This document shows positions 2,562-50,549 of a DNA stretch of 64,000 bases, piece by piece; the first letter of the stretch is position 1, and each line of letters starts with the position of its first letter. The position numbers and the translations under genes were made by a program. The notes under the pieces are model-generated. The model saw only the letters and a list, made by a program, of their open reading frames with translations. It searched no databases and was not told the DNA's origin. The DNA comes from an uncultured delta proteobacterium (GTDB taxonomy: Bacteria; Desulfobacterota; Binatia; UBA9968): the NCBI GenBank assembly GCA_963804165.1, contig CAWDPO010000014.1:64001-128000 (forward strand), given 5' to 3'.

Positions 2562-3600
2562 ATGGCGGACGAACACAAACACGAACACAAAGGCGAGCAC
2601 GCGCACGACCACAAGCAAGATCACGGCCACGAGCACGGTCATTCCCATGGGCCCGACGACCAACATACGCACGCGCCCGATCACGGCCATTCGCACGATC
2701 GCGGCCAGTCCCATGACCACGGCCATGATCACGATCATTCGCATGAACACGCGCATGGTCACGAGCACGAGCACGAACACGGCTCCTCCCACGGTCATAG
2801 CCACGATCACAAGACGCGTTTTCACGATCCGGCGCACGCCGCCGAATTCGATCGGCGAGCGCTGTCGGGCATCCGCAGTTCGTTGACGGAGAAGTTAATC
2901 GAAATGTTAACCCTTAAAGGCGGCGAGCTCGTGCTCGATCTTGCAACGGGCACCGGAAGGGTCGCACGGCCGCTGTCCAAACATATGAAAGGTGGTCGCA
3001 TCGTCGGCGTAGATCAGGCGCTGGCGATGCTCGACGTCGGTCACCAGCACGAGGATGCGATTCCGCACTACAATCAGAGCGCCGGCGAGGCCGATAAGTT
3101 GCCCTTCAAAACCAACACTTTCGATCGCGCGTTTCGTCTCGTTTAGCCTGCATCATTTCAGCAATCCGTCGGGTGTCGTCGGCGAAGTGCTGCGCGTGCT
3201 CAAGAACAGCGGTCGCTTCGTGGTGCTCGATCCGATCATCGAAGAGGCGAAAGACGCCGTCGATATCGCACTCGAAACGAAGATCAATCAAGTTTTTCGC
3301 CGCACCCACGGCGATGATTTCCGCTTCCACACATCGAGCAGCATTCAGCGCTTGCTGACCAAAGCCGGTTACCGCGTGCCGCGCTGCAACGTGCTTTCTT
3401 TCTCCTTCAATCAAGAAGGCATGGACGGCATCCCCACCGGGCGCCACTGGCTCGAAGCCGCGCTGGAACTGGAAAAAGAAGCGCCGGAGCTCGCCGAGCG
3501 CATGAAGAAAAACTATTTCACCTGGCACGCCCACGGCGACCATGTGCACGTGAAGGGCGCGTTTTCTTACGCGTTAATCACAGGCGTCAAGCCGGCTTAA
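2562..3600 (+). CDS. Class I SAM-dependent methyltransferase (UbiE-like) with His-rich N-terminal tail; frameshift near 3135
   Basis: VLDLATGTG motif I and LPFKTNTFD in ORF 2562..3146; continues FSLHHF...EVLRVLKNSGRFVVLD in ORF ending 3600. Confidence 0.85.
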
Positions 3601-4340: not shown

Positions 4341-7300
4341 ATGAGTGAACTTAAGAGACACCCTGCCAAGCTGCCGCCGGAGCAGGCGGCGCTCCGAGCG
4401 AAGTGTTTTCACCCGTCGGGGACATTTGTCGAGTTTCCAATCGAAGACGTTGAGACATCAATCCCCGCCCGGTTTGAGAAGATCGTACGCAAATATCCCG
4501 ACCGAATCGCGATCAAATCAGCAAATCAACTGCTCACTTACACCGAGCTCAACTCCCAAGCCAATCGAATAGCCCACGCGATTGTAGATCAGCAAGGAGA
4601 TGAGGCGGAACCGATCGCGGTATTGCTTGAAAGCGCGATGACGTTGATGGCAGCGACAATCGGGGTTTTAAAGGCTGGGAAATTTGTTGCGCTTCTGGAT
4701 GCTTCCTTCCCGGATTCGCGTAATGCGGCCATATTGGAGGATTCTCAAGCGCAAGTGGTGATCACCAACCGAAAAAATGCTCCGCTAGTTAACAGAATCA
4801 CAAACCGTGATTGTCGATTGATGGATTTCGAATCCGCCAATTCGGGAACTTCGGACGATGACCTGTGGTTATCTGTCTCACCGAACGCGCTCGCATTCCT
4901 TGTGTATACGTCCGGTTCCACTGGACAGCCCAAAGGCGTCATGCAGGATCATCGGAGTCGCTTGCATCAATATAAGTGGAGTACAAACACGAATCACATT
5001 TGCGAACACGATCGGGCGAGCCTTCTGACTTCCGGTACGTCCAGTTCGGTGGTTGTTAGTCTTAGGACCTTGCTTAATGGTGCGATGCTTCTTCCATTTG
5101 ATATTCGTAGGAGAGGAGTCGACAATCTCGCCGGCTGGCTCTTGGGCGAGAAAATTTCCGTTTGCGTAATCAGCTCGCCACTTTTCCGCAGCCTTTGCGA
5201 AAGCCTAACGGGAAAGGAAGGATTTCCCGATCTTCGCCTCATCCGGTTGAGTAGCGAAACAGCTTATAAGAATGATTTTTGTCTTTATAAGAAATTTTTC
5301 CCCCCAGAATGCCTTCTTACCAATGGGTTATCCCCCACTGAAGCTGGAGCGTTGACAGACTATTTCATGGACCAAGAGACAGAGATTCCCGGTGACGAGA
5401 TACCCGTGGGTTATCCCTTGGAAGATATAGACATTTTGTTACTGGATGACCAGGGCAAGGAGGTTGGCTTCAATCAGGTGGGCGAGATAGCCGTGAAAAG
5501 TCGTTATCTCTCGTCGGGCTATTGGCGAAGGCCAGCGCTTACCGAAGCCAAATTTAGACGCGCTCTCGACGGCAAGGACAGCCGTCTTTATCTCACCGGT
5601 GATTTGGGACTTATGCTTCCTGACAGTTGTCTCCTTCACAGGGGACGCAAGGATTTCCGAGTGAAGGTCCGGGGCTATGGGGTCGAGATGGCGGAAGTAG
5701 AGACTGTTCTCCGGGATCATGCGGCCATCAATGACGGAGTTGTGGTGGCGCGCCCAAATGAATCGGGTGAGGCTCGTTTGGTTGCTTATTTTACTTCTCC
5801 CCGGAGGCCCGGCCCCAGCGTGAGCGAGTTGCGCCGTTTCTTGCAAGAGAAGCTTCCCGACTACATGATCCCGTCGGCCTTTGTGAGGCTAGACGCGATA
5901 CCTTTGACTCCAAATGGCAAGGTAGACCGAGAAGCGCTTCCCGACCCGAAAAACTCAAGACCTAGTCTCAATGCTCCGCCCGTCGCACCGCGGACTTCCA
6001 AGGAGGAGAAATTAGCAAAGATTTGGGCGAAGGAGCTGCACATCGATCAGATAGGAGTTCATGACAATTTTTTCGATTTAGGCGGCCATTCTCTATTAGC
6101 AATGCGAGTCATCTCGCAGGTTCGCGACCATCTACAGGCTGAATTGTCCCTGATTCAGTTTTTTGAAAGTCCGACTGTGGCTGCTCTCGCCGCTCGAATT
6201 GAACCGGCTCGTTCACCGCAGGACGGGACACCGGCTCCTTTTATACAGCCCGCTTCAAGGGACGGAAAACTCCTTCTTTCTTTTGCCCAACAGAGGCTAT
6301 GGTTCATGCACCAGCTCGACCCAGAAAGCTGTGCGTACAACCTGTTTTCTGCAACTCAGCTCACGGGCCGACTCAACGTGACGGCGTTGGAGCAGAGTTT
6401 CAACGAGATCATTGGGCGCCACGAGGCCTTGCATACCGTCTTTAGGTCGGTCAACGGACAGCCGTTCCAAGTTGTTCTCCCAGCTCTGACTATCAACCTT
6501 CCTGTCGTGGAATTGCGAGATATCGTTTCTCCGGCTGAGCGAGACGCGGAGCGTCGCCGCCTTTGCGCTGAGGAGGCCCGGCGACCCTTCGATCTGGCCA
6601 ACGGCCCTTTGCTACGGGCCACTTTACTAAGATCGACCGACGAAACGTACGTTCTGCTGCTGGTCCTACACCATATTATTTTCGATGGTTGGTCTAGAGC
6701 AGTCTTAGATCAAGAAATTTCCATAGCCTACGAGGCCTTGTCCTGCGGCCAATCTCCATCGCTGCCCGTGTTGCCGCTTCAGTATGCAGACTTTGCTCAA
6801 TGGCAGCGCCAGCAGCTACACGGCGAGGCGCTCGAAGGGCAACTGGCCTACTGGAAAAAGCAGCTTGAAACGCTCTCAATTTTGCAGTTGCCGAGTGATC
6901 GGCCACGACCAGCGATTCAAACTTCTAGAGGCGCAAGACAATCTTTCACGCTGCCCGAAGAACTCGTCGCGGGACTCAAAATGTTTGGGCGCCAGGAGGG
7001 CGCCACTCTTTTCATGACGTTGCTAGCGGCCTATCTGACATTGCTGGGCCGTTACACGGGGCAGAACGATATCGCGATTGGGGCTCCCATCTCCGGCCGG
7101 AACCGTAGCGAGTTCGAAAGTTTAATCGGGCTCTTTCTTAACATGTTGGTCCTGCGCACCGACTTGTCTGGCAATCCAACCTTTCGAGAGCTGCTCTCTC
7201 GCGCCCGAAAGGTTTGCCTGGAAGCTTATGCGAACCAGGATGTCCCTTTTGAAGAACTCGTCCAAGAACTGCAGCCGCTACGCAGTCTAAGTCACAATCC

Positions 7301-9473
7301 ACTATTTCAAGTAACCTTTGCGCTACAGAATAGCCCAACGAGCCTTCTCAAGCTGACCGGTATGACCGCACGAGATCTTAATCTGGGGTCAGGAATAGCA
7401 ACTTTTGATTTACACCTGTTCATGGTCGAGGAGGAGACAACCTTGAGCGGTTGGTTGGTTTATAACACGGATCTGTTTGATGCCGCGTCGATCGCCCGGA
7501 TGGTCAGGCATTTTCAAATGATACTGGAAGGCGTCGTCGCTAATCCCGACCAGCATATCTCGGATCTACCGCTACTCACGGAGGCCGAAAAGCATCAACT
7601 TTTGGTGGAGTGGTGCGATAGAAGGGAAGAATACACAAAAGACAGGTGTCTGCACCAGCGGTTTGAGGAGCAGGTAGTGCGTACGCCTGAGGCCCTCGCC
7701 GTGGTCTTTGAAGATCAGCAATTGACCTACCGAGAATTGAACCGGTCCGCAAATCGCATAGCGCGTCGATTGCAAGGACTGGGAGTTGGGCCTGATGTTC
7801 TGGTCGGCCTGTACGTCGAACGATCCATCGAGTTGATCATCGGCGTTCTGGGAATTCTCAAAGCCGGCGGGGCCTATGTTCCGTTCGACCCCAGTTATCC
7901 AGCGGATCGAGTAGAGTTCATGCTGAGAGATGCCGACGTATCGGTGCTGCTGACGCAGAAGCACCTGTCCACTCAATTACCTGCATGCGATTCCGCAGTG
8001 GTATACCTTGATGCGGAACATTTGAAAAATTCGTCCGACGACGCGAATGAAGCAGATCTTGAAAGCAGTGCCAAGCCGGATGATTTGGCATACGTGATCT
8101 ACACTTCCGGCTCTACCGGCAAGCCCAACGGCGTGTTGATCACGCATCGTAGTGCTGGCGCTTTTCTCAATTGGGCTCACAGCGCGTTTACCCAAGAAGA
8201 TTTCGCCGGCGTCATTGCATCGACCTCGATTTGCTTTGACTTATCCGTGTTTGAAATTTTTGCTCCGCTTACAGCCGGCGGGCAGGTTATCCTGGTTGAA
8301 AACGCTTTGGCGCTAGCCCACGTGGACGAGGCAGTGGCGCCAACTTTAGTGAACACGGTGCCGTCGGTCATGGCCGAGCTGTTGCGCCTTGGCGGGTTGC
8401 CGAAGTCGATTCGCACCGTGAATCTGGCCGGCGAGCCACTTAAGGCGAGCCTGGTTCGGCAGATCCATCAACAAACTTCCGCACAGCAGGTCTATGATCT
8501 TTATGGACCGTCGGAGACCACGACGTACTCGACTTACACGCAGAGAACGGCCGATGGTGCTCAAACGATTGGCCGTCCGATCGCCAACACGCAAATCTAT
8601 ATCCTGGATCCGCATGGGAATCCCGCGCCGATCGGCATACCGGGAGAGATTTACATTGGCGGGACGGGTTTAGCGCGCGGCTATTTGAATCGTCCTGAGC
8701 TGACTGCGGAGAAATTCATTGCCAATCCGTTCAGCACCGAGCGCGGGGCAAGGCTTTACAGGACCGGAGATTCAGCGCGGTATTTACCCGACGGAAATAT
8801 CGAGTTCCGCGGGCGCCTGGACAACCAAGTCAAGATCCGGGGATTTCGCATTGAGCTAGGGGAGATCGAAGCCGTGCTCAGTCAACACTCCAGACTCCGA
8901 GAGGCTGTCGTGCTCGTTAGAGAAGACAATCCTGGCGAGAAGCAGTTAGTGGCCTATACCGTCGCCGCTGCCGGCTTCATGCCTTCGGTCAATGAACTGC
9001 GCGCCTTTCTACAGCAGAAACTCCCGGAATACATGGTACCGTCCGCGTTTGTCATGCTCGTCAGCCTTCCATTTACTCCCAACGGTAAGGTGGACCGAAA
9101 GGCACTACCCGCACCACACCAAACCAGGCCTGAGCTGGAGGAAACTTTCGTCGCTCCGCGGACACCGACCGAGCAAACGCTCGTCGCAATATGGGGCAAA
9201 GTGCTCAAACTCGAAAAGGTCGGCATCCACGACAACTTCTTCGAGTTGGGAGGACATTCGTTACTTGCCACGCAAGTCATGTCCCGAATACGCAGTGCTT
9301 TTTCCATCGACCTGCCGCTACGCCGCATGTTCGAATCGCCAACGGTGGCGGAAATTGCGGTCATTATAACAGAAAGCCGAGCACAGCCTGTGAGCGAAGC
9401 AGCGTTTGCGCGTATGTTGTCTGAGGTAGAAGTCACGACCGAGGAAGAAGCGGAAAAAATCCTTGCAAAATAG
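4341..9473 (+). CDS. Non-ribosomal peptide synthetase, A-T-C-A-T, no TE
   Basis: Two YTSGSTG.P A3 motifs, TGD motifs, two FF.LGGHSL carrier motifs, HHIIFDG condensation motif, PLTPNGKVDR A10. Confidence 0.95.
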   Translation: MSELKRHPAKLPPEQAALRAKCFHPSGTFVEFPIEDVETSIPARFEKIVRKYPDRIAIKSANQLLTYTELNSQANRIAHAIVDQQGDEAEPIAVLLESAMTLMAATIGVLKAGKFVALLDASFPDSRNAAILEDSQAQVVITNRKNAPLVNRITNRDCRLMDFESANSGTSDDDLWLSVSPNALAFLVYTSGSTGQPKGVMQDHRSRLHQYKWSTNTNHICEHDRASLLTSGTSSSVVVSLRTLLNGAMLLPFDIRRRGVDNLAGWLLGEKISVCVISSPLFRSLCESLTGKEGFPDLRLIRLSSETAYKNDFCLYKKFFPPECLLTNGLSPTEAGALTDYFMDQETEIPGDEIPVGYPLEDIDILLLDDQGKEVGFNQVGEIAVKSRYLSSGYWRRPALTEAKFRRALDGKDSRLYLTGDLGLMLPDSCLLHRGRKDFRVKVRGYGVEMAEVETVLRDHAAINDGVVVARPNESGEARLVAYFTSPRRPGPSVSELRRFLQEKLPDYMIPSAFVRLDAIPLTPNGKVDREALPDPKNSRPSLNAPPVAPRTSKEEKLAKIWAKELHIDQIGVHDNFFDLGGHSLLAMRVISQVRDHLQAELSLIQFFESPTVAALAARIEPARSPQDGTPAPFIQPASRDGKLLLSFAQQRLWFMHQLDPESCAYNLFSATQLTGRLNVTALEQSFNEIIGRHEALHTVFRSVNGQPFQVVLPALTINLPVVELRDIVSPAERDAERRRLCAEEARRPFDLANGPLLRATLLRSTDETYVLLLVLHHIIFDGWSRAVLDQEISIAYEALSCGQSPSLPVLPLQYADFAQWQRQQLHGEALEGQLAYWKKQLETLSILQLPSDRPRPAIQTSRGARQSFTLPEELVAGLKMFGRQEGATLFMTLLAAYLTLLGRYTGQNDIAIGAPISGRNRSEFESLIGLFLNMLVLRTDLSGNPTFRELLSRARKVCLEAYANQDVPFEELVQELQPLRSLSHNPLFQVTFALQNSPTSLLKLTGMTARDLNLGSGIATFDLHLFMVEEETTLSGWLVYNTDLFDAASIARMVRHFQMILEGVVANPDQHISDLPLLTEAEKHQLLVEWCDRREEYTKDRCLHQRFEEQVVRTPEALAVVFEDQQLTYRELNRSANRIARRLQGLGVGPDVLVGLYVERSIELIIGVLGILKAGGAYVPFDPSYPADRVEFMLRDADVSVLLTQKHLSTQLPACDSAVVYLDAEHLKNSSDDANEADLESSAKPDDLAYVIYTSGSTGKPNGVLITHRSAGAFLNWAHSAFTQEDFAGVIASTSICFDLSVFEIFAPLTAGGQVILVENALALAHVDEAVAPTLVNTVPSVMAELLRLGGLPKSIRTVNLAGEPLKASLVRQIHQQTSAQQVYDLYGPSETTTYSTYTQRTADGAQTIGRPIANTQIYILDPHGNPAPIGIPGEIYIGGTGLARGYLNRPELTAEKFIANPFSTERGARLYRTGDSARYLPDGNIEFRGRLDNQVKIRGFRIELGEIEAVLSQHSRLREAVVLVREDNPGEKQLVAYTVAAAGFMPSVNELRAFLQQKLPEYMVPSAFVMLVSLPFTPNGKVDRKALPAPHQTRPELEETFVAPRTPTEQTLVAIWGKVLKLEKVGIHDNFFELGGHSLLATQVMSRIRSAFSIDLPLRRMFESPTVAEIAVIITESRAQPVSEAAFARMLSEVEVTTEEEAEKILAK

Positions 9474-13951: not shown

Positions 13952-13967
13952 AGAATGGAGTGATGCA

Positions 13968-14971
13968 GTGTTGGAGTCATGGATTCGTTGTCGATTCGCT
14001 GTCGTAGCGATTAACTGCTGGTTTTTCGCATTCATTCTAGCTGTGACGCCGGCCTTAGCCCTAGACAAGCTGCGCATTTCCTACGCTTCTGTCACTGGCA
14101 ACACCGCTGGGATTACTTATATCGCCCAGCGCGCCGGGTTATTCGAGAAACAGGGGCTGGACGTTGAATTGATTCTGATCACCGGTGGGCCGGCGTCGAT
14201 CAGCGCTTTGTTGAACGCCGACGTTGATCTGGACATGCGCGCGCCGGTCGCGGCGCTGCAGGTGATGGCGCATGGAGTCAAGCTGACTTTTTTACTTTTT
14301 CAATCGAATACCCTCGAATACGACGTGGTGACACGGCCGGAGATCAAAGACATCAAGCAGCTTAAAGGCAAAAAAGTCGGCATCATCCGCTTCGGTGGCA
14401 TTTCCGAACTGATGGTGCGCTATCTGTTTCAAAAACTGGGCTTGGACGCGGACAAGGACATCGCCATTGTCCAGGTTGGCCAGGCACGCTTTGTCGCGAT
14501 GGAAAAGGGCGCCATCGACGCGACGGTTTTGCCTCCGCAGAGTCCGCCTATGCCAAGCGCAATGGCTTTCGCGTTCTCGACATGCCGACTCTGCCGTTTT
14601 TTGGCAGCACGATTGTCGCCGCGCCAGCTGTCGCGGCGAAGCGAGCCGATGTGATGACGCGGTACATGAAAGGCTATTTGGACGGGGTGCGGTTCTTTCT
14701 CAGCGAGCGAGAGCGGAGCAGCCAGTACCTCGCCGATCTGTTGCGCACGAAAGACCGCGATATGATCGATCTCGCGTACAGGAATCACCCGCAGCATCAG
14801 ATGGGCCGAAAGCCCTATCCGGACATGAACGCGGTCAAGGCGACGCTCGACATCATGAGCTCCCGCGATCCATTGGTGAAGAAACTCAAGGCGGAAGAGC
14901 TGTTCACCCTTGGCTATTTAAAGCAGCTCGATCAAAGCGGCTACATCGATCAATTGTATTCGGGTAAATAG
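13968..14971 (+). CDS. NMT1/SsuA-like ABC substrate-binding protein (frameshift ~14535)
   Basis: GLFEKQGLDVEL, LKGKKVGIIRFGG; continuation ORF 14582..14971 ends LDQSGYIDQLY; start approximate. Confidence 0.85.
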
Positions 14972-22920: not shown

Positions 22921-22950
22921 TTGACCGGTTCATGCCGTTTTAACTAGAAT
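22921..22950 (+). promoter_or_regulatory. Putative sigma70 promoter of ThDP-enzyme operon
   Basis: TTGACC-N18-TAGAAT upstream of 23083. Confidence 0.45.
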
Positions 22951-22977: not shown

Positions 22978-23066
22978 GGAGTAATGGAGCGATGGAGTAT
23001 TGGAGTAAGGGTTTAAAGCCCAACACTCCAGTTCACCAGTACTCCAACACTCCATCACTCCAACTC
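22978..23066. repeat. Octamer inverted-repeat hairpin (TGGAGTRA)n...(CCAACACT)n
   Basis: GGAGTAATGGAGCGATGGAGTATTGGAGTAA ... CCAACACTCCAGTTCACCAGTACTCCAACACTCCATCACTCC. Confidence 0.85.
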
Positions 23067-23082: not shown

Positions 23083-24985
23083 ATGCATAGGCTGGTTAGA
23101 GATTATTTGACTCAGGACCTTTCAAGGCGCGGCTTTTTGAAATCCATGGCCGCGGCCGGCTTCACTGTGGCGGCGGCGCAGTCGGTTTTGGAGAATCTCG
23201 TTCCCGCGGCCCATGCGCAAACTGCCGGGAAGGAATACGTCAAACCGTTTGAGGGAAACGGCGGCGAGCTGTTGGCCGAGCAGTTGTTGCAAACCGGCAT
23301 CGACTACCTCTTTGTCGGCAACGGCTCGGGTCTGGGTTCGCTCTGCGATGCCGTGATCGATCGGCCCAAGCTCAAGTTGGTGCTGGCGACTCATGAAGCT
23401 CACGTCGTGGCGATGGCGAGCGGCTACACGATGGCTACGGGAAATCCCTCGTTCTGCATGTACAGCCGGGTGGGAGCGGCTCACTCCACGGGCAACATTT
23501 ACAATGCCATGAAAGACCACCTGCCGATTGTCGTTGCCGTGGATCGCGCCGATACGACGGAAGACGGTCGGGACGGGCACGAGGATCTTGAGGACATGCT
23601 CGAGCCGATGAAGCAGTACACCAAGTGGCGCTGGGTCGTCAAAGAGGTTGGCCGCACGCCCGAATGGGTCACCAAAGCGTTCAAAGTCTCCGCTACCTTG
23701 CCCTGCGGCCCGACCTATCTCATGTTTCCGCGCGACGTCACCTTCGAGCATAAGGCCAAGGCGAATATTTTTCTGCCGGGCACATTCAACGTGCCGATGA
23801 ACGTCAGGCCCAATGCTAAGAGCGTCGAGAAAACCGCCAAGCTGCTCTTGGAAGCGAAAAGTCCGCTGCTGATGATCGGTCCCGAGGTCTATCAAAGCGG
23901 CGCGCAAAAAGAGGTGGTGGAGTTGGCCGAGCTGCTGAGTCTGCCCGTGTGCGAGCGCGGCCGGTGGTGCCAGGTGTTCCCGAACCAGCACCCGCTCTTT
24001 TTGGGAGCGCTTAGAAGACAAATGCGCTATCCGCAGAATGTCGATCTGTTTCTGAATCTGGGCGCGCTCTTTCCTGACCCGGAAGAGAGCTTCATCGTCG
24101 AGAAGAAAGTTCCCGCGGTGGTGGCCGGCACCGATGTCCGTCATATGGGCGATGCGATGCCGCTAGAAGAGGCGCTGGTGGGAAATCTTAAGGAGACAAC
24201 GCGGGATCTTATCGACGCGCTCAAGAGCATGGCGACGAAGGATCGCATCGACAAGATCGCCAAGCCGAAGATTCGATGAGACCAAGAAATATACCGAGAG
24301 GCTGCGCGCGGGGCGCGAGGCTGCGGCGAAAAAAACATGGGACAATAAACCCATCGAGTGGGACCGTCTGGCGAAAGAGATCGAGGCGGTGGCGGATAAA
24401 GACGCGATCATCGTCGAAGAGTTCGGTTCACAGCGCGGCAAAGTGCCTCGATTATATGAATCTAGGTTACGGCGCCAAGACCCAGTTGGGCCGCACGACG
24501 GGAAGCTGCCTGGGGTGGGGTTTGCCGGCGTGCGGTGGGCGTAAAGCTCGCCAAACCGGATCACCAAGTCTGGGCCCTTCAAGGTGATGGCGGCATGCTG
24601 TTCGGCCAGACCGAGGCGCTGTGGCCAATGCGCCGCCACGAAGCGCCGATCATTACGGTGGTCTTTAACAACCGGAGCTACAACGAGACGCAGAAATCGA
24701 ATGTGGAGCAGGGGCGCGCAGCAGCGCGAGAAAAAGTTGGACATGATCAGTCACTTGGGCAATCCGGATGTGAACTTCGCGAAGATCGCCGAGGCCTACG
24801 ACATCAAGGGCGAGGTCGTTGCCGATCCCAACGACATCGCGCCGGCGCTGAAGCGCGCCATTCAAGCGACGCGCGACGGCAAACCGTATCTGCTCGACGT
24901 TCTCGTCGCGCAGGCCGGGCAGGGCGCGAATCTCAACTGGTATCCAAAGGTGTCGGTGGCGGAGATGAGGACGAAGAAAGCCTAA
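23083..24985 (+). CDS. ThDP-dependent enzyme (benzoylformate decarboxylase/ALS-like) with Tat signal; several frameshifts 24270-24700
   Basis: SRRGFLK...AAHAQ; ATHEAHVVAMA catalytic Glu; QGDGGMLFG...VVFNNRSY ThDP motif. Confidence 0.85.
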
Positions 24986-24989
24986 AAAT

Positions 24990-25070
24990 TGGAGTAATGG
25001 AGTGATGGAGTATTGGAGTAATGGGTTGGGAGCCCACCACTCCAGCACTCCAAAACTCCAACACCCCAAT
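24990..25070. repeat. Octamer inverted-repeat hairpin
   Basis: TGGAGTAATGGAGTGATGGAGTATTGGAGTAATGG ... CCACCACTCCAGCACTCCAAAACTCCAACACCCC. Confidence 0.85.
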
Positions 25071-25087
25071 TCTCTCCGGGAGGTTTT

Positions 25088-26992
25088 ATGCGTGAACTAG
25101 TGATGCGTTATCTCAGTCGCGATTTGTCGCGGCGGTCTTTTCTTACGAGCATGGCCGCGGCCGGGTTCACTCTGACGGCGGCTGAATCGGTGCTCAAGTC
25201 GCTGACTCCGCTCGCCGAGGCGCAAACCGTAGCGCCCGAGGCGGTGAAAATTGTCGAGGGAACCGGAGGAGAGCTTTTAGTCCAGCAGCTGATCGCGGCG
25301 GGCACAAAATATTTCTTTTATTGTAATAGTTCCCCCGCGGGGCCGATTCTGGACGCGCTGGTCGATACACCGGAGATCAAGATCGTCATCGGCACTTCCG
25401 AGAACATCACGATGGCGCTGGCGTGCGGCTACTCGTTGGCGACCGGCCAGCCCAGCGTTGTCAATGTAACGACCGTCGTTGGCACCGCGAGTCTCATGGC
25501 CAATCTGTTCAACGCGCGGCGAGATTACATTCCCGTGATCGTCACGGCGGGCACGCACTATTCGAAAGGAACGGGACGAGACGGCTTTGAAGACATCGAC
25601 GACATCCTTGAGATCACCAAACCGTTCGCGCGCTGGGGTTTTCAAGCAAATTACGCCAGCCGCATGCCGGAGCTGACCCGGATGGCTTTCAAGATGGCGA
25701 CCACGCCGCCGGGAGGTCCCGTCTATCTCGCCTGCCCGCGCGATGTTCTCGATCAGAAGGCTAAAGGCGAAATCATCACGCGGGATAAATTCGATATTCC
25801 GTCGCGGGTCCGGCCCGACAGCCGCGCCGTAGAGAAAGCGGCCCAGCTCCTTCTCGAAGCGAAGGCTCCAGTGCTTGGCGTCGGCCATGAGGTTTGGCGC
25901 ACCGGCGCGATGGACCAGGTCGTTGCGCTGGCTGAAATGCTCGGCTTACCGGCCGTGCAGGTGCTGAGCCCTTACAATGATTTTCCCACGACCCATCCGC
26001 TCTACATGGGCGACGTCGCGGGCCGCTTCAATATACGCCATCCCAAGAACGTCGATGCATTCTTGAACCTGGGTGGCCGCATGCCGTATCAGCAAGGCGA
26101 CGAGCCGAGCATACCGCGAAAGTGGAAGGTGATTCACGCTTCGCTCGACGGCGAAAGCATCGGCAAGGTCTATCCGACGGACGTTGCTTTGCTCGGGGAC
26201 GTGAAGGAAACAACCATGGCGTTGTCAGAGGCGATCAAACAGGGGCTGACTCCGGCGCTCAAGGCTGAGGTGAAAAAGCGCAACGAGGAAACCAAGGCCT
26301 TCACGGATAAATTGAATGATTCGCGGATGCAGTTTGCCCGTCGCGAGTGGGACAACGCGCCCATCAGTTGGGCGCGGATGGGATTCGAGCTGAACGAAGG
26401 ACTCGACAAAGACGCCGTTCTCGTGAACGAATTTGGTTCCTCGAAGGATTCCGTCTTCCGCTGGTTTCGCTGCGCCAAGGATGAAAAAAGCAGCATAGGC
26501 AGAACCATGGGTTCGGCGCTGGGCTGGTCGATGGGCGCGGCTTTAGGAATCAAGCTCGCACTGCCTGACCGGCAGGTTTGCTGCATGGTCGGCGACGGCG
26601 CCGTGATGTTCGGTCAATTTGAATCTCTATGGACGGCCGCCCGCTATGAGATTCCTGTCATCTTCGTCGTCTTCAATAACCGCAGCTACAACGAGACGCG
26701 CGTGCGCCACTTGTCCGGTGGCGGCAAGATGGCGCAGCAGAAAAAAGATCTGGTCAATTACCTCGGCAATCCCGATGTGGCCTTCGCCGACGCCGCCCGA
26801 GCTTTTGGAGTCAAGGCAGAGTCGGTCAAAGCCCCCGGCGACCTAAAGGCCGCGATCAAGCGCGCCGCCGCTGCGGCGCGGGACGGCAAACCGTATCTCT
26901 TGGACGTATTAGTCGAGCGCACTGGAGCTTTGGCCGAGTCCACATGGTATCCAAAGGTGTCGGTTGCGGAGATGAGGACGAAGAAAGTTTAA
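25088..26992 (+). CDS. ThDP-dependent enzyme with Tat signal
   Basis: SRRSFL...LAEAQ; GTSENITMALA; VGDGAVMFG...VFNNRSY. Confidence 0.92.
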   Translation: MRELVMRYLSRDLSRRSFLTSMAAAGFTLTAAESVLKSLTPLAEAQTVAPEAVKIVEGTGGELLVQQLIAAGTKYFFYCNSSPAGPILDALVDTPEIKIVIGTSENITMALACGYSLATGQPSVVNVTTVVGTASLMANLFNARRDYIPVIVTAGTHYSKGTGRDGFEDIDDILEITKPFARWGFQANYASRMPELTRMAFKMATTPPGGPVYLACPRDVLDQKAKGEIITRDKFDIPSRVRPDSRAVEKAAQLLLEAKAPVLGVGHEVWRTGAMDQVVALAEMLGLPAVQVLSPYNDFPTTHPLYMGDVAGRFNIRHPKNVDAFLNLGGRMPYQQGDEPSIPRKWKVIHASLDGESIGKVYPTDVALLGDVKETTMALSEAIKQGLTPALKAEVKKRNEETKAFTDKLNDSRMQFARREWDNAPISWARMGFELNEGLDKDAVLVNEFGSSKDSVFRWFRCAKDEKSSIGRTMGSALGWSMGAALGIKLALPDRQVCCMVGDGAVMFGQFESLWTAARYEIPVIFVVFNNRSYNETRVRHLSGGGKMAQQKKDLVNYLGNPDVAFADAARAFGVKAESVKAPGDLKAAIKRAAAAARDGKPYLLDVLVERTGALAESTWYPKVSVAEMRTKKV

Positions 26993-26996
26993 AGAC

Positions 26997-27077
26997 TGGA
27001 GTAATGGAATGGTGGAGTAATGGGGTAATGGGTTGATAACCCAACACTCCAGAACTCCAATACTCCAGCACTCCAAT
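26997..27077. repeat. Octamer inverted-repeat hairpin
   Basis: TGGAGTAATGGAATGGTGGAGTAATGGGGTAATGG ... CCAACACTCCAGAACTCCAATACTCCAGCACTCC. Confidence 0.85.
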
Positions 27078-27092
27078 TCCTCGGGAGGTTTT

Positions 27093-29009
27093 ATGCGTGA
27101 ACTAGCGATGCGGTTTTTAAATGGCGACCTTTCGCGACGCGGTTTTTTGAAGGGTCTGGTCGCCACGGGATTCAGCCTGACCGCAGCCCAGTCGGTGGTG
27201 GAGTCGTTCAAGGGCTATGCCGAGGCGCAGGAAATTCCACCGACGATGATCAAGCCGTTTCAAGGCGAGGTGGGCGAGCTGATCGCCGAGTGTCTGCGTG
27301 CGGCCAAGGTCAAGTACATGTTCTTCTGTAACGGCTCGCCGCAGGGGCCGATTCTGGATGCGCTGGTGGACAAGCCGGATATCAACGTCATCATCGCGAC
27401 CGAAGAGGGACAAGCCGTCGCGATGGCGCAGGGATACGAAATCGCCTCCGGTGAGATCCCGTTCGTGGTCACGCAAGCGGTCGGTGTCCCACGCCAGGTG
27501 ACCAATTTGGTGAACGCCTGGAAGGACCGCTCGGGTATGGTCGTCATGACGCCGCGCACGCCACTCGATACCCATGGCCGGGATAGTTTCGAAGACGTGG
27601 AAAATTGGTTGGATTTCGTCAAGCCGGTGACCAAGTGGCGTTGGGACATCGTCAAAGCGAATCGTATCGGCGAGCATATGCGTCACGCCTTTAAGCTCGC
27701 TTCGACGGCGCCCCGGTCGCCGGTCTTTCTGACGGTTCCTGACGATCTCCTGGAGGAAAAAAACGTCAAGGCTTCGGTGATCAGCCAGGACTATTTCACC
27801 GTCCCGGTAAAGGTGAAGGCCGATCCCAAACAGATCGAAGCCGCAGCCAAGATGATCATCGAGGCGAAGAATCCGCTCCTCCTCGCGGGGCATGAGATCA
27901 CGCGGTCAAAGGCGCAAAAGGAGATGCTCGCCTTCGCCGAATTGTTGGGCATTCCGGTCACCCGCGAGCGCGGGCTTTTCCTGGACTTTCCGAGCATGCA
28001 CCCGCTGTTTCTAGGCGATTTCGTCGCCAACATGCGCTTCCCGCGTAACATGGATTTGATTGTAAATATCGGCGGACAATTTCCCCGGATGAGCGAGAAC
28101 GCGGAGGAAGACCCGTTCGTTTTCCTGCCCAAAGGCGTGAAGATCATCCATGCGCGCATCGAGACCGACGATATTGCGCGGCTCTTCCCCACCAGCTTCA
28201 GTATCGCCGCCGACGTCGGCCACACGCTGCGCGATCTCACGGACGCGGTGAAGTCCATGCTCACCCAGGAGCGCATCGAGGCGATTCGAAAACCGCGCCT
28301 GGAGGCGGCGACGAAGTTTACCGCCGCGCTGCGGGAGTCGTGGCGCAAGGCCGCGCAGACCACTTGGAACAGCAATCCGATGTCGTGGGAACGCGTGGTC
28401 TTCGAACTCGACAAGGCGATGGACAAGGATGCGGTGGTGGTCCAGGAAATTGCCGACAACAAGCGGACGGAGCGTTGGATCAGCTATGGCGAAGAAGGCG
28501 GCAGAACGCTCATGGGCCGCACCACGGGGCAATGCCTGGGTTGGGGCGTCGGTGCCGGGCTCGGGGTCAAACTGGCATGGCCCAATCGCCAAGTGGTGAG
28601 CCTGCAGGGCGACGGCGGAATCATGTTCGGCCAGACCGAAGCCTTCTGGAGTTACGCTCGCTATGGGGCGCCGATCATCACGGTGGTCATGAACAACCGG
28701 AGCTACGACGGCGTGCGCCGCAGGCAATTTGCCAAGCAGGGCAAGCAAGCGAAGTTCAACAAGGACATGAGCGCGTACATGGGCAACCCCGATATCGATT
28801 TCTCGAAGATCGGCGAAGCGTACGGCATCAAAGGCAGCTTTGCGCGCGACGCCGGCGAGTTGCAGACCGCGCTCAAACGCGCCATTCAGGCGACCCGCGA
28901 CGGCAAGCCGTACATCATCGATGCGCTGATCGAGCGCACCGGGCCGGGCGCCGACCTGACATGGCATCCGCCGTTCACAGTCGCCGGGATACGGACGAGG
29001 AATGCGTAG
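27093..29009 (+). CDS. ThDP-dependent enzyme with Tat signal
   Basis: GGAGG RBS; SRRGFLK...YAEAQ; ATEEGQAVAMA; QGDGGIMFG...VMNNRSY. Confidence 0.92.
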   Translation: MRELAMRFLNGDLSRRGFLKGLVATGFSLTAAQSVVESFKGYAEAQEIPPTMIKPFQGEVGELIAECLRAAKVKYMFFCNGSPQGPILDALVDKPDINVIIATEEGQAVAMAQGYEIASGEIPFVVTQAVGVPRQVTNLVNAWKDRSGMVVMTPRTPLDTHGRDSFEDVENWLDFVKPVTKWRWDIVKANRIGEHMRHAFKLASTAPRSPVFLTVPDDLLEEKNVKASVISQDYFTVPVKVKADPKQIEAAAKMIIEAKNPLLLAGHEITRSKAQKEMLAFAELLGIPVTRERGLFLDFPSMHPLFLGDFVANMRFPRNMDLIVNIGGQFPRMSENAEEDPFVFLPKGVKIIHARIETDDIARLFPTSFSIAADVGHTLRDLTDAVKSMLTQERIEAIRKPRLEAATKFTAALRESWRKAAQTTWNSNPMSWERVVFELDKAMDKDAVVVQEIADNKRTERWISYGEEGGRTLMGRTTGQCLGWGVGAGLGVKLAWPNRQVVSLQGDGGIMFGQTEAFWSYARYGAPIITVVMNNRSYDGVRRRQFAKQGKQAKFNKDMSAYMGNPDIDFSKIGEAYGIKGSFARDAGELQTALKRAIQATRDGKPYIIDALIERTGPGADLTWHPPFTVAGIRTRNA

Positions 29010-29023
29010 GAGGGTGCAACGAA

Positions 29024-29106
29024 CTGGAGTAATGGAATGATGGAGCGTTGGAGTAATGGGTGGGGAGCCCATCACTCCACTACTCCAATACTCCAGCACT
29101 CCAATT
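29024..29106. repeat. Octamer inverted-repeat hairpin
   Basis: TGGAGTAATGGAATGATGGAGCGTTGGAGTAATGG ... CCATCACTCCACTACTCCAATACTCCAGCACTCC. Confidence 0.85.
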
Positions 29107-29125
29107 ATTGGGAGGAGTCTTTTTC

Positions 29126-29431
29126 ATGCAACGTGGACTTTTTTTGATCTTGTTTTTGGTTTCGATTCTATTTCCGGTGGCGGTTTCGTGGTCGGACAAT
29201 CACTGGAAAAACCTCATGCCGGATGGAGAAGGAAAGCAAGTCACCATGGAGCTTTGCGGCACCTGTCACAATCTGCAAAAAACCGTCGTATCGAGAAAAT
29301 CCGCTCAGGAATGGGAGCGCACGGTTTACGACATGATCCGCCGCGGGGCGCAGATTTTTCCCGACGAAGCCGATCAAATCGTCAAGTACCTGGCGGTGAG
29401 CTTTCCGCCCGGGAAGGCGGTAAACCAGTAG
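29126..29431 (+). CDS. Small monoheme cytochrome c
   Basis: Signal peptide, MPDGEGK, CGTCH heme motif, W.RTVYDMIRRGA, IVKYLA. Confidence 0.88.
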   Translation: MQRGLFLILFLVSILFPVAVSWSDNHWKNLMPDGEGKQVTMELCGTCHNLQKTVVSRKSAQEWERTVYDMIRRGAQIFPDEADQIVKYLAVSFPPGKAVNQ

Positions 29432-29587
29432 AAAAGAAATTGGAGTGATGGAGTGGCGGAGTAAAGGATTCCAATACTCCAGTTGCCAATCTCTCAGATT
29501 TTCAAATCTTGCCGCAGGAATTTTGCCGCGGTTCGATCTCATTGGGTCAGTTCCCCGCAGCTTGTTGCGTAATGGCTAATACTAAGT

Positions 29588-29752: not shown

Positions 29753-30224
29753 CTATGATAAGAAGCCGATCCACGGTTTCGGCCAGGGGACGCTCAATAG
29801 ATTGTCATAAACGCCGTAGAGAAAACCCCAGGTGACCGCGGTCAAGACTATCGCCGTTAACCAACCGCCGCCGTACAGCTTGACGTAGAGGAAAACAAAC
29901 AACGGCAGCGCGACCAGAAAGCCGATCAGATGGATCGCGAAGAAAAGCCCCCAGAGCCACGCCCAGATTTCTAAACTGCCCCAGCGGCCTTGATGCTCGA
30001 TGGCCTGAACCTCGAAGGTCGGACGCAGGATTTTTGCTCCCTCGGCGCGCGCCGCCTTAAAATCTAGCCGCAGTTGTAGCAAGGCGAGCACGACCCCGAT
30101 GCTTCCCAACAAGAAGAATTATAATCGAAGCGCGAACGGGCCAATCCTTGGCGACGAACAGAGCCGCGAGCATGACAAGGCCGATAAACGCCGTAAAAAA
30201 CATCTGTTCTTTAGCGCGACTCAT
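29753..30224 (-). CDS. tctB: Tripartite tricarboxylate transporter TctB-like small membrane subunit (frameshift ~30105)
   Basis: Hydrophobic; IGFLVALPLF...YGVYDNLLSVPWP; directly follows tctA. Confidence 0.75.
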
Positions 30225-31718
30225 CAAGCCTCCGACAATGACGTCTCGACTTTTCGTTTTCGCGCGGTGAGGATCGGATACACAATGGATGCGATCAGGA
30301 GCAGGATCAAAACAATCACCATCGGCCGCGCCAGCCATTCGAATCCATAGCGCGTGTACGAGAGCCAGAAGTAGAGTTCCATCTTGTCGCCCAGGACCAT
30401 GCCCAGCACTAGCGGCGCGCGCGGCCAACCGTAGCGGCGCATGAAGAAACCGAGGGAGGAGAAACATCATCAGCCCCGTGAGATCGTAGGTGTGAAAGTT
30501 GGCCGCGAAGGCGCCGATGAAGACAAAAGCCACCGACCGGCGGGACGATGGCATAAAACGGCATGAAGCAAATCTTCGCGATGGGTTTGGCGAACACCAT
30601 GCAGATCGCCGTGGCGAGAATATTCGCAATCACCAAGGTCCAGATCACAGCGAAGGTCAGGTTGAGCTGTGAGGTCAGCATGTCCGGGCCCGGTTTGATG
30701 CCGACGGCGATAAAGGCGGTGAGCACGAGCGCCGATGAAGTGCCGCCGGGAATGCCAAAGGCCAGTGTCGGAATGTAATCGCCGCCTTCCTTGGCGTTGT
30801 TCGAACCTTCCGACGCGATCACGCCGCGCACGTCGCCTTTGCCGAAATTTTCCCGGTTTTTTTCGGTCTGCACCGCGTGGGCATAGGCAAACCAATCCGC
30901 CACCGAGCTGCCGAGACCGGGGAGAAAACCGACCCAGACGCCGATGATCGAAGTACGAATCAACAGCCACCAGTGAATGAAGACGTCCTTGATGCCTTGC
31001 ACGTAGCCGCGGCCAAATTCTTCCGCCTTTGCGATGGCGCCTTTGCGGCCGGCGAGATCGATCACTTCCGGGATCGCGAAGATGCCCAGCGCGACGAGAA
31101 CCAGATCGATACCTTCCCAGAAGTATGAAAAATTGAACGCGTAAGCGCTCGACGCCGGATTTCGCGTCCAGGCCGACGGTTGAAATCAATACGCCGAGAA
31201 TGCCGCCGAGAAGGCCCTTGATCGGCGCGTTGCCGCTGAGAATGCCGACCATGCTCACGCCCCAAATCGTGAGAATAAAAAACTCCGGCGAGCTAAACGA
31301 AAGCACCAGTGGGCGCAGCACCGGTAACGAGGCAAACAGGACCAGCGCGCCGAAAATGCCGCCCAACAACGACGCCACGAACGAAGCGCTGAGCGCTCTG
31401 GCGCCTTCGCCGTTTTTCGCCATCGGGATGGCCGTCGAGAATCGTCGCTTGGGAGCCCGTGCTGCCCGGCACCGAGATGAGAATCGAAGTAAACGCGCTG
31501 GCGGTGTTGCCGACCGCGTCCATGCCGACCAGCAGCGCGATGACGAGCAGCGGATCTTTCATCGTCATGACGAAGGGAAGCATGAGGGCAAGCGTGCTCG
31601 GCCCGCCGATGCCCGGCAAAAAGCCGACCAGGCTGCCGATGCCGACGCCGAGGCACATGAACATGAATGCCTCGGGTTGAAGCACGCCGACTAAGCCTTC
31701 AAGGGCAGCTTCAAACAT
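30224..31718 (-). CDS. tctA: Tripartite tricarboxylate transporter TctA large permease (several frameshifts)
   Basis: GFLPGIGG, SVPG...ATILDG.P, EGSNNAKEGG.YIPTLAFGIPG, APLVLGMVLG across ORFs 31293-31718, 30470-31423, 30409-31065, 30224-30442. Confidence 0.88.
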
Positions 31719-46952: not shown

Positions 46953-49252
46953 TGAGCACGCGCTCAAAAAGCCGAAAATCGCACTGACGGCACAAGCAAC
47001 CCTTTCGGGGGCGCAGCCAAAGTCATTGGAACTCCGACGCCGCGTTTAGAAGGGCCCTGAAAAAGTATCGGGGCGGGCGATCTATGCCACCGACGTCAAC
47101 TTGCCGGGCATGCTTTGGTGCAAAGTCTTGCGCAGTCCGATCTCTCACGGCCGCATCAAGAAGATCGATGTGAGCCGCGCTCGCGCTTTACCCGGCGTGC
47201 ACGCGATCATTACCGGCGAAGACGTCAAAGGGCTATTGATTGGCAGAAAAATTTACGACATGCCCATTCTCGCCGACGGCGTGGTCCGGTTTATCGGCGA
47301 GAAAGTCGCCGCGGTGGCGGCGGAGAAGCGAGGCGATCGCTGAAGAAGCGGTCGAGCTGATCGACGTCGAGTACGAGGAAATGCCGGCGTTGCTCGATCC
47401 GCTCGAAGCGGTCAAACCTTCGGCCACGCTGCTCCATCCTAACGTCCAGGGTATCGGGGACTTGCTTCATCCAATCGAGACGCCGAGCAACGTGTTCGTC
47501 AACATGAATTGGAAAAAAGGCGATGTCGAAGCAGGGTTTCACGACGCGGATATCATTATCGAGAACACTTTTACGACCAAGCCGGTGCATCAAGCCTATA
47601 TCGAGCCGCACGCGTGTGTCGTCCGGGCGCAAAGTGTTGGAAGCGCCGATATCTGGGCATGCTCCAAGGTGCCGTTCGCGTTGCGCGAGCAATCGCCACG
47701 GCGTTCGGCAAAGGCCTGCGAGAATTTTATCATCCACCCCTGTTATATCGGCGGCTGCTTTGGCGGCAAGGGCGACTTCATGGATGTGCCGGCCTGCTAT
47801 CTGTTGTCCCTGAAAAGCGGGCGGCCGGTGAAAATGGTGATGGATTATTCGGAAGAATTCGTCGCGGGCAATCCGCGCCATGCTGCCATCGTATTCGGGT
47901 AAAAAGCGGCGTCAAAAAGGACGGCCGGCTCGTAGCGCATCAAATGGAGTACGTCTTCGACAGCGGCGCGTACGGCGCATTCAAGCCTCAAGGTTATTTG
48001 GTCGGTCCGAAGGAAGCTGCCGGGCCCTTACAGAATTCCCAACGTCTTCATCGAAGAAAAAATCGTTTACACTAACAAAATTCCGTGCGGCCACATGCGC
48101 GCGCCGGGCGATCCGCAAGGTTTTTTCGCCAACGAGTCGCAGATGGATTTGATCGCGCGCCGATTGGGCATGGACCCGATCGCGTTCAGGAAAAAAGAAT
48201 TTGATGCACGACGGCGATCTCTCGCCGATCGGCCACGCGGTGCCGCATATCAAGAGCGACGAAATTCTCGACGGCAGCCGTCGAGAGTTCCGGCTACCGC
48301 CGGCCGAAGCGCAAAGCATACCGGGCGCGGTATCGCGGTTTCGCAGTGGTTGCCGCTCGGCGGCGAAAGCCACGCGTTCGTCTCGATCGATGCGCAAGGA
48401 GACGTTACTCGTTTCCACGGCGATGCTCGATCAAGGCGCGGGGACGCATACGGCGATGCGGCTGGTTGCCGCCGAGGAGTTGCAACTTCCGCTCGAAAAA
48501 ATCCGGATCGCGACGCTCGACACGAGCAAGGTGGGACCGGATACCGGCATCGGCGCCAGCCGCGGCACGCGCATCTTCGGCAACGCACCCGTTTGGCGGC
48601 GGCGCAGGCGAAAGAGCAATTGCTCGACGCTGCCAGCGCTAAACTCGGCGTTGCCAAGGAACAGCTTTCTTTGACCGGCGACGGCGCCGTGCGCGCTCCT
48701 ACGGGTCCAAGCTTGAGCTATCGCGAGATCGTGACGTCGAGCGGCGTCAGAAATTCGCGGCCATGGCTTTTATAAGAATTTCGAATCGGGCCCGGCAGCG
48801 GCGCTTTGTGTCCAGGTCGCCGAAGTCGATGTCGATGTGGAAACCGGGCAGGTCAAACTCACGCATTTCACGAGCGCGCACAGCACCGGAACGGTTTTGA
48901 ACCCGCTGATGCATCAAGGCCAGATCGACGGCGGCGTCGTTATGGGCATGGGCTACGCGCTTATGGAAGGAGTGATGATCGACGGCGGCAATGTGGTCGA
49001 CGACCAATTTTGGCGAGAACAAGATTCCCTCGATTCGGGACATTCCAGTTCTGAAAACGGTTATTCAGGAATTCCCGGTCGGCAACGGTCCCTACGGCGG
49101 CATGAGCATCGGCGAACCGCCGGTGCGTTCCGACCGCGGCGGCCATCGCCAATGCGGTGGAGGATGCCGTCGGCGCGCGAATCTATGATTTGCCGATTAC
49201 CGCGGAGAAGGTGCTGCGGGCGATGCGCGCTAGGAATGGAGTAATGGAGTGA
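46952..49252 (+). CDS. Xanthine dehydrogenase/CoxL-family molybdopterin-binding subunit (many frameshifts)
   Basis: LRSPISHGRI, HQAYIEPHAC, IGGCFGGKG, MRAPGDPQ, GIGASR, GQIDGGVVMGMG, GMSIGE spread over successive frames. Confidence 0.85.
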
Positions 49253-49419
49253 TGGAGTAATGGGCTCCGAACTCCGCACCTCTGCGCGTGCAGTTATCCC
49301 CGCAACGACTTGAACGTGAAGCGAAGCCGAAGCATCGGACGCTCTTGGAACTCCGAACTCTCAGTCTTAAATACCCGTTGCGACGAATTATTTTACCTGC
49401 TAATTCACTTGACCAGTCT

Positions 49420-49925
49420 ATGAAAGACGAACTAGCGAAGAGATTGGTTCAAGGCCTGAAAGACGCGGGTGTCAACTTCGTCACTTACCTGCCGGAGACT
49501 CGCTTGAGCCAGATCGTGCCGTTGATTCGCGACGATCCGAAAATGGAGTTGATCGCGGCGGCGAGCGAGCAGGAGGCGGTCACGATCGCCGCGGGAGCTA
49601 CCTTGGGCGGCAAACAGGCTGCCGTGTACATGGAAAACACCGGCATCTACGTGTCGAGTTACAGCTTGCTGACGATCGGCAAACAACTCGGCGTGCCGAT
49701 TGTTCTTGTCATCGGCTATTTGGGCGGCGTGCCCGACCAGCGCAATAGTTTTCTTTACGCGACGATCGGCAAGCACACGATTCCGATGCTCGAAGGACTG
49801 GGCATCGAGCACATGCTGCTCAAGACGGCGAGGGGCTCGAAGTCAAGATCAACGACGCGGTGCGGGCGGCCAACTCGTTGCGCGCGCCGTTCGCGCTGCT
49901 GTTCGCCGGGGAGTTTTCCGTATGA
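49420..49925 (+). CDS. ComD-like ThDP decarboxylase alpha subunit (frameshift ~49825)
   Basis: LKDAGVNFVTYLPETRL, ASEQEAVTIAAGA; paralog of 45439. Confidence 0.82.
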
Positions 49926-50530: not shown

Positions 50531-50549
50531 GAACGTTTTGGGAGAGAGA

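Follow-up and report, generated by a model that had tools for sequence, protein, structure and literature searches.

Enzymes of the POX/ALS/BFD superfamily that depend on thiamin diphosphate (ThDP) are textbook cytoplasmic proteins, and the oxidative members known so far use, to my knowledge, flavin adenine dinucleotide (FAD), lipoamide or iron-sulfur clusters. Here I describe a locus in which enzymes of this superfamily carry a twin-arginine (RR) leader and are followed by the gene of a small c-type cytochrome. The locus occupies positions 23083-29431 of a 64-kb stretch of DNA (hereafter the window), which belongs to the metagenome-assembled genome (MAG) of a Binatia soil bacterium, with 46 contigs and 7.5 Mb. 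It consists of three ThDP enzyme genes, g1, g2 and g3, and the cytochrome gene. The reading preferred here, to which I give a probability of roughly 55%, is that these benzoylformate decarboxylase (BFD)-like enzymes are exported along the Tat (twin-arginine translocation) route, oxidise a 2-oxo acid or an aldehyde in the periplasm, and pass the electrons to cytochrome c.

BFD and 4-hydroxybenzoylformate decarboxylase (PDB 1bfd, 7orx and 6qsi) have in common with the enzymes of this locus the three-domain fold, the activating Glu, and the GDG...NN motif. However, the identity is only 22-25%, and the family described here adds an RR leader of 45 residues and a cytochrome c partner gene, whereas BFD itself is cytoplasmic and non-oxidative. 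PoxB/POX (pyruvate oxidase, pyruvate:quinone oxidoreductase), a member of the same superfamily, oxidises the enamine and delivers the electrons to the respiratory chain. It does so with FAD and quinone at the cytoplasmic face of the membrane, whereas no FAD is indicated here and the acceptor would be a periplasmic haem c. SorAB and the quinohaemoprotein dehydrogenases follow the design proposed here, in which a small His/Met cytochrome c exported by Sec accepts the electrons of a periplasmic dehydrogenase loaded with its cofactor; SorA is exported by Tat. Their cofactor is molybdopterin or pyrroloquinoline quinone (PQQ)/cysteine tryptophylquinone (CTQ), in contrast to ThDP. The window cytochrome bears a weak likeness to SorB (29.0 bits with the sulfite dehydrogenase subunit model NF052246, cut-off 93) and to the quinohaemoprotein amine dehydrogenase haem domain (23.1 bits with Dehyd-heme_bind, PF09098, narrowly short of the gathering cut-off of 25.2). 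In the Atlas clusters nearest to the window cytochrome, PF09098 is found in 28-66% of the members. Finally, pyruvate/2-oxoacid:ferredoxin oxidoreductases (PFOR for the pyruvate enzyme) are ThDP enzymes that oxidise hydroxyalkyl-ThDP one electron at a time via a radical, but they differ in belonging to another fold family, in their [4Fe-4S] acceptors, in their cytoplasmic location, and in their dependence on coenzyme A.

Full-text literature searches, with subscription journals outside their scope, found no periplasmic or Tat-exported ThDP enzyme, and the sole paper found with both 'benzoylformate decarboxylase' and 'twin-arginine' is on laccase secretion. A term search of a 2026 review of Tat transport (PMC13673990) gave no mention of thiamin, ThDP or TPP. 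This agrees with the first-pass annotation of the same DNA, made from the sequence alone, which knew of no characterised example. ThDP enzymes, Tat cargo, and dehydrogenase-cytochrome pairs are each known, while their combination is uncharacterised and directly testable. The pairing points to an undescribed oxidation of organic acids or aldehydes outside the cytoplasm.

A ThDP enzyme family with a twin-arginine leader

The four cistrons lie on the + strand, each with a GGGAGG-type ribosome-binding site upstream. The g1 gene (23083..24985, +) starts with the ATG at 23083 and has a reading frame broken by four +1 insertions, which are treated in the last section. The g2 gene (25088..26992, +; 634 aa) and the g3 gene (27093..29009, +; 638 aa) are intact. 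The start of g3 was assigned to the ATG at 27093, which is preceded by GGGAGG and is shared with the starts of homologues; an alternative start of this open reading frame (ORF) is the TTG at 27033. The Pfam domains TPP_enzyme_N, _M and _C were all found above cut-off in g2 and g3. The pieces of g1 have them too, TPP_enzyme_N and _M in the first piece and TPP_enzyme_C in later ones. As had been noticed in the first-pass annotation, a catalytic Glu (in the contexts HE, SE and EE) and GDG...NN are legible in all three copies. In an alignment of 44 proteins of the family (A1), E105, D503-G504 and N530-N531 are invariant, and the motif for Mg-ThDP reads GDG-x(25-27)-NN.

What kind of ThDP enzymes are they? 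Among the 25 best matches listed per protein, no NCBIfam model reached its curated cut-off. The best scores were 264 for PRK08327 (cut-off 456) and 232 for BFD (cut-off 493); in detail, the BFD equivalog NF005485 gave 232.5 bits with g2 and 214.4 bits with g3. The pyruvate oxidase model gave 165 versus a cut-off of 742. A true benzoylformate decarboxylase was rejected as the identity of these proteins because the score is below the curated cut-off. The best PDB sequence matches are benzoylformate decarboxylases (1e-43). An AlphaFold2 (AF2) model of g2 (pLDDT 89.6, pTM 0.88) has as its nearest folds BFD, the 4-hydroxybenzoylformate decarboxylases of Rhodococcus jostii and Pseudomonas fluorescens, and an HKA synthase, at the identity of 22-25% given above and a TM score of 0.85 on the target. 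Glyoxylate carboligase and CDH, which are FAD enzymes, reached TM scores of 0.76-0.78 with the same model, below the 0.85 of the FAD-free BFDs. The family has the BFD-type G-x-E/D-V turn at the place where FAD or ADP binders have GxG. I take the invariant His in the FPxxHP motif of the family to stand in the place of BFD His281; the place of BFD His70 is, on the same assumption, not conserved.

With an E-value limit of 1e-20, a large protein database yields 252 relatives. Those listed, 120 in number, are mostly 610-675 aa in length, most of them align over the full query length, and their source names include Candidatus Binatia, Bryobacteraceae, and Acidobacteria. Searching genome contigs with a single ThDP protein as the query gave no relative, and the relatives came with the profile of a narrower alignment (A2). 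The g3 protein is 89% identical to its counterpart in another Binatia MAG (locus L019). In plasmid sequences, there was no match at E 1e-60. A profile search of 301 genomes sampled from the window's phylum, its own genome among them, found leader-less relatives only, in 15 other genomes, with matches starting at profile position 50-71. Nine of these were taken as the outgroup of a tree, and they are not evidence on the range of the family. Matches of these nine cytoplasmic relatives begin at query residue 59-70, and the leader is not present in this sister group. In the tree, the leader-bearing ThDP proteins form one clade against them (SH-aLRT 100). Judged by sequence, the leader-bearing ThDP enzymes are a monophyletic, uncharacterised family. 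Its members are widespread among uncultured bacteria of soils, sediments and marine habitats, namely in Binatia, Acidobacteriota, Xanthobacteraceae, Woeseiaceae, and Chromatiales. In the genome of the window, the ThDP-enzyme profile has 39 matches spread over many contigs, and only the three of the window match from profile residue 1.

The leader has the core LSRRGFLKS in g1, LSRRSFLTS in g2 and LSRRGFLKG in g3. In each protein, the Tat core (SRRGFLK, SRRSFLT and SRRGFLK) is followed by 16 uncharged residues rich in Ala and Gly, and then by AHA-Q in g1 and AEA-Q in g2 and g3. Thus, the Tat consensus, the Ala-rich stretch, and the AxA-Q site that the first-pass annotation had reported for each enzyme were all read in the three translations. 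Is the leader common to the whole family? The consensus is MRELV..YL...SRRxF..., about 45 residues in length. RR with a hydrophobic residue two places on was found in 116 of the 120 listed database proteins, and the remaining four are N-terminally truncated. The RR pair is present in all 86 ThDP proteins read from genome loci, and no row of A1 departs from R15 and R16. When 71 N-termini were aligned, M1, L4, R15 and R16 occurred in all 71, F18 in 70, A31 in 66, and G26 and S34 in 63; S14 is likewise nearly invariant. To judge from these position counts, the conservation of the entire leader is much like that of the enzyme body. The Tat model TIGR01409 (cut-off 16.7 bits) is passed by g1 with 19.7 bits. 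The genome of the window has two TatC genes.

Pairing of the ThDP gene with a cytochrome c gene

The last cistron (29126..29431, +) encodes a monohaem c-type cytochrome of 101 aa with a hydrophobic Sec-type signal, the haem motif CGTCH behind it, and a conserved Met in DMIRRGA. It was described in the first-pass annotation as a secreted CxxCH cytochrome closing a run of three tandem ThDP enzymes with RR leaders, and for the genes and the motifs this description is right. Two corrections are needed, because the cytochrome starts at 29126 and not at 29060, a position that falls within an intergenic hairpin, and because g1 is not a single open frame. In an alignment of 56 cytochrome domains of this type (A3), C21, C24, H25, W40, M47, G51 and Y65 are invariant, and M47 is the predicted haem ligand. 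The 7.5 Mb genome of the window has exactly one copy of the A3-type domain, which is the one in the ThDP operon, and two genes of the cytochrome c assembly family.

A profile hidden Markov model built from the window cytochrome was used to search 80 genome loci with leader-bearing ThDP genes. The A3-type domain was found on the strand of the ThDP gene in 43 of the 80 loci, and in 40 of the 59 loci that have 1 kb or more of sequence on each side. The domain lies no more than 400 nt from the ThDP gene in 38 of the 43 cases, and the smallest gaps are 2 and 8 nt. Paired loci have one to three such domains, on either side of the ThDP gene but always on the same strand. The cytochrome ORFs of these loci start with a hydrophobic segment in 41 of 43 cases, and contig ends truncate the remaining two. 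A second, independent collection of 79 metagenome loci has the domain in 51, and in 30 of the 38 loci with at least 600 nt on both flanks. Four further genome loci have a different monohaem cytochrome (Cytochrome_CBB3 type) next to the ThDP gene. The paired loci range over Binatia, Acidobacteriota, Alphaproteobacteria, and Gammaproteobacteria; the labels of the carriers are Binatia, Thermoanaerobaculia, Terriglobia, Blastocatellia, Bryobacteraceae, Stellaceae, Xanthobacteraceae, Woeseiaceae, and others. The pairing is found in most clades of the ThDP tree. The first-pass annotation had named a cytochrome link that is not conserved as a refutation of its idea; the link is kept in both collections and in several phyla, and the idea was thus not refuted.

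Are there other conserved partners? Clustering of the neighbours in the 80 loci revealed no conserved third gene and no TorD/NapD-like chaperone. Recurrent neighbours are TonB-dependent receptors, cupins, UbiD, Rieske/LigXa oxygenases, amidohydrolases, NMT1 and TctC binding proteins, and PQQ dehydrogenases, several of which are present in the window too. As the commonest of the remaining neighbour families reaches only 11 of the 80 loci, the ThDP-cytochrome pair is, as far as gene neighbourhoods tell, the conserved unit.

The first-pass annotation had also named a complex prediction as a check, and one was run with residues 46-638 of g3 and the mature cytochrome. It scored 0.60 (0.63, 0.54 and 0.60 in the single runs), and the best control 0.00. 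The runs share at least 88% of the contacts, and the pLDDT of the partner is at least 78. The mark for this score is reached by 116 of 157 solved complexes and by 2 of 215 mismatches. This lends weak support to a complex; the pair stands out from its control, and its score lies in the weak band of values reaching the mark at 0.60 or below, which holds only 18 of the 157 solved complexes and both of the passing mismatches.

Some cytochromes deviate in their haem motif. In the A3 rows from L026, L029, L034, L037, L040 and L042 (Stellaceae, Xanthobacteraceae, and Alphaproteobacteria) and L046, a five-residue-spaced CX3CH motif (CAGACH, CSKSCH) stands where the others have CxxCH. The L046 contig is labelled Verrucomicrobiia; its ThDP gene shares 97% identity with g3, and its cytochrome 60% with that of the window. 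It clusters with the Binatia loci, and its label is probably a binning problem.

Proposed reaction and alternatives

In the proposed mechanism, the ThDP enzyme would fold, bind Mg-ThDP, and oligomerise in the cytoplasm. The folded enzyme would then be exported by Tat via the family-specific leader, which in the three copies of the window would probably be cut after AxA, and the small cytochrome c would be exported by Sec and receive its haem in the periplasm. There, ThDP would add to a 2-oxo acid (with loss of CO2), an aldehyde, or a diketone, giving the hydroxyalkyl-ThDP enamine. Unlike in benzoylformate decarboxylase, the enamine would not be protonated and released but would be oxidised by the His/Met haem c. 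Two one-electron steps would lead to acyl-ThDP, which would be hydrolysed to a carboxylic acid, and the reduced cytochrome would feed the respiratory chain. It is known that the ThDP enamine can be oxidised by one-electron acceptors, as in ferricyanide assays and in the radicals of PFOR. The comparative evidence, namely the invariant RR leader and the gene pairing kept in two collections, supports the periplasmic ThDP-cytochrome c system suggested by the first-pass annotation. The decarboxylation proposed there is only one among the possible ThDP chemistries. Export, cleavage of the leader, the existence and direction of electron transfer, and the absence of FAD are what I infer from the sequences. 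As for the substrate, aryl-glyoxylates or other lignin-derived keto acids are a first guess, prompted by the likeness of the fold to BFD, by the kinship with 4-hydroxybenzoylformate decarboxylases, and by neighbouring genes of the aromatic-catabolism kind.

Several observations weigh against a periplasmic oxidation coupled to this cytochrome. The nearest solved structures are those of non-oxidative, FAD-free decarboxylases, and I know of no precedent for a direct transfer from ThDP to haem. The A3-type cytochrome is missing in 19 of the 59 well-flanked genome loci and in 8 of the 38 metagenome loci, and a gammaproteobacterial clade of 22 rows lacks the domain altogether. Moreover, the domain also occurs outside the ThDP pairing, with 2 to 43 matches in five other genomes. 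Ten such proteins were examined (eight from the Terriglobia genome G304 and one each from G303 and G302); they are secreted, with the haem domain fused to a beta-propeller of the Vgb_lyase/SGL type. No fused ThDP-cytochrome protein was found among 34 longer candidates scored for a cytochrome domain, although this is a weak negative. The low band of the complex score is to be counted here as well.

The first of these observations fit a rival explanation, in which the ThDP enzymes are exported but non-redox (decarboxylases, lyases, or carboligases acting on aldehydes or diketones) and the cytochrome serves some other dehydrogenase acting before or after them. It would account for the BFD-type nearest sequences and folds, for the loci without a cytochrome, and for the company that the cytochrome domain keeps with other secreted proteins, and PQQ dehydrogenases do neighbour four loci. 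However, the pair has no second redox enzyme as a conserved neighbour, the commonest other neighbour family being confined to the 11 of 80 loci mentioned above. The cytochrome gene directly adjoins the ThDP gene in the tightest cases, and the single A3-type domain of the window's genome lies within the operon. An exported enzyme without redox function seems unlikely.

Two side observations were made on these proteins. The first concerns the G304 genome, that of locus L049, and loci L100-L108. G304 has the 43 matches to the cytochrome domain, and 7 of the 10 haem-propeller proteins also have a CarboxypepD_reg domain; they are apparently a large undescribed family. In seven cytochrome-less loci of Gammaproteobacteria (L052, L055, L056, L061, L069, L084 and L087), a class I/II aminotransferase gene and an acyltransferase gene follow the ThDP gene. 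L052 and L055 have an aldo-keto reductase and an amino-acid permease in between, and some of the seven have a TonB-dependent receptor upstream. This suggests that the exported enzyme has been put to a different use in the cytochrome-less gammaproteobacterial clade.

The remaining points against the preferred reading concern the leader. With TIGR01409, g3 (16.2 bits) and g2 (14.1 bits) are borderline, and the Pfam model TAT_signal (PF10518, cut-off 22.7 bits) gives 20.3 bits for g1, 17.3 for g2 and 18.3 for g3, all below. A conservation close to that of the enzyme body is unusual for a signal peptide. Position 33, within the hydrophobic part, is polar or acidic (E, Q or N). AF2 models the leader as helices, with block pLDDT values of 69-82 up to residue 40, so the leader could be a structural element. 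Only 45 of the 86 family members have an AxA-like site.

If the leader stays uncleaved, it may serve as an N-terminal anchor that holds the Tat-translocated enzyme on the periplasmic face of the membrane, with either redox or non-redox chemistry. The limited share of AxA-like sites, the strong conservation of the entire leader including its hydrophobic part, and the modelled helices are in line with this. An anchor is nevertheless improbable; all three copies of the window end in AHA-Q or AEA-Q, and the short Ala/Gly-rich stretch with a polar residue at position 33 would make a poor membrane span. I also give little credence to an N-terminal extension that is structural or regulatory in enzymes remaining cytoplasmic, with an unrelated cytochrome gene next to them; the Tat-model scores at or below cut-off, the unusual conservation and the pLDDT of up to 82 speak for it, but the RR pair is invariant and followed by F and a hydrophobic stretch, the partner gene product matures only outside the cytoplasm, the pairing is found in two independent collections, and conserved n-regions are typical where a Tat leader belongs to a cofactor enzyme, for instance a hydrogenase small subunit.

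Returning to Tat-exported ThDP enzymes that reduce a cytochrome c, a broader proposal can be made tentatively, as possible rather than probable. The family may be a new class of respiratory ThDP dehydrogenases that are FAD-less, BFD-like and Tat-exported and that hand both enamine electrons singly and directly to a dedicated periplasmic haem c. With it, soil and sediment bacteria of several phyla might draw energy from keto acids or aldehydes that they need not import, possibly aryl-glyoxylates derived from lignin, and in Binatia the cistrons might be shuffled as cassettes between hairpin repeats. If true, ThDP would be a new cofactor class among Tat cargo, the cytochrome a new electron-transfer partner for ThDP chemistry, and the reaction a new entry of organic carbon into respiratory chains. 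Since the family is widespread, it may matter for how plant-derived keto acids and aldehydes are turned over. A self-contained ThDP biocatalyst, suited to coupling with electrodes or cytochromes, could be obtained from it as well.

Hairpin repeats, frame breaks and surroundings of the operon

Each cistron of the operon is bordered by a long hairpin of GGAGTAAT-like octamer repeats and their complements. The first hairpin (22978..23061) lies directly before the ribosome-binding site of g1. The second (24987..25071) has a folding energy of -44.3 kcal/mol (z = -6.1), and none of 200 shuffled sequences folds as well. The third (26998..27074) lies between g2 and g3, the fourth (29026..29102) between g3 and the cytochrome gene, and a shorter one (29442..29480) after the last cistron. 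The octamer pattern has 29 matches versus 0.67 expected. In soil sequencing runs, the summed contig depth of the hairpin bin is 98-1053 versus 47 or less in the other bins; thus, the hairpin is a dispersed repeat. Octamer-repeat hairpins are also found at 49238-49266 and 13957-13985 of the window, and the same repeats are found at the cistron borders of the related loci L112, L045, L046 and L169. A promoter-like site upstream of the operon (22921..22950, +; TTGACC, 18 nt, TAGAAT) matches at 10 of 12 positions; the scan gave four sites versus 3.4 expected, so this site is weak.

The cistron order was compared between 23083-29431 of the window and the loci L112, L116, L117, L169, L173, L019 and L045. 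Close relatives (81-89% DNA identity) have the same cistrons in other orders. The order is g1'-cytochrome-g2' in L112, L116 and L117, g1'-g3'-cytochrome in L169, and g1'-other ThDP gene-g3'-cytochrome in L019. In the window it is g1-g2-g3-cytochrome, without a cytochrome gene between g1 and g2. To judge from these arrangements, the differing orders look like an exchange of cassettes between the hairpin repeats.

The g1 frame has its first stop at 24279 and then continues through frames 2, 3, 1 and 2, the whole path being 1, 2, 3, 1, 2. It was found that the breaks are four single extra bases near 24268, 24441, 24532 and 24690. Compared with the intact ortholog in the L019 Binatia MAG (70% identity), the residues are continuous and every shift is +1. 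The extra bases are absent from all seven related metagenome contigs that span the four sites, with no other indel there, and these contigs have a single open g1 frame of up to 671 codons. Contigs from soil runs also lack the extra base at 24269 and 24690, the two sites that they cover. The DNA sequencing runs containing the window sequence are all soil or sediment metagenomes with shares of 0.12 or less, and they served for this indel check only; no RNA sequencing run with the window sequence was listed. Since the related contigs lack them, the insertions were taken to be probable assembly errors, or else a very recent strain-specific loss. An old pseudogene was considered for g1 and rejected, because there are only the four +1 insertions and no further indel relative to the seven related contigs, and because the coding sequence is conserved within every frame segment.

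Other genes of the window are frame-split as well, namely TctA/TctB (29756-31423), a molybdopterin-binding subunit (47240-49241), a small ThDP protein (49288-50369), TctC (50472-51331), and possibly a methyltransferase (2562-3597). The split genes suggest that indel errors are frequent in this assembly, or that it has many pseudogenes of recent origin. The window is rich in genes resembling those of aromatic catabolism; it has three Rieske/LigXa oxygenases (35296, 53290 and 55110), UbiD (38497), a LigB fragment (52221), and two amidohydrolases (15795 and 17518). Six NMT1-type binding proteins, two TctC proteins, and an FMN-dependent 2-hydroxyacid dehydrogenase (62382) are also encoded, together with a non-ribosomal peptide synthetase module (4341-9470) and a PAS-GAF-GGDEF protein (484-2367).

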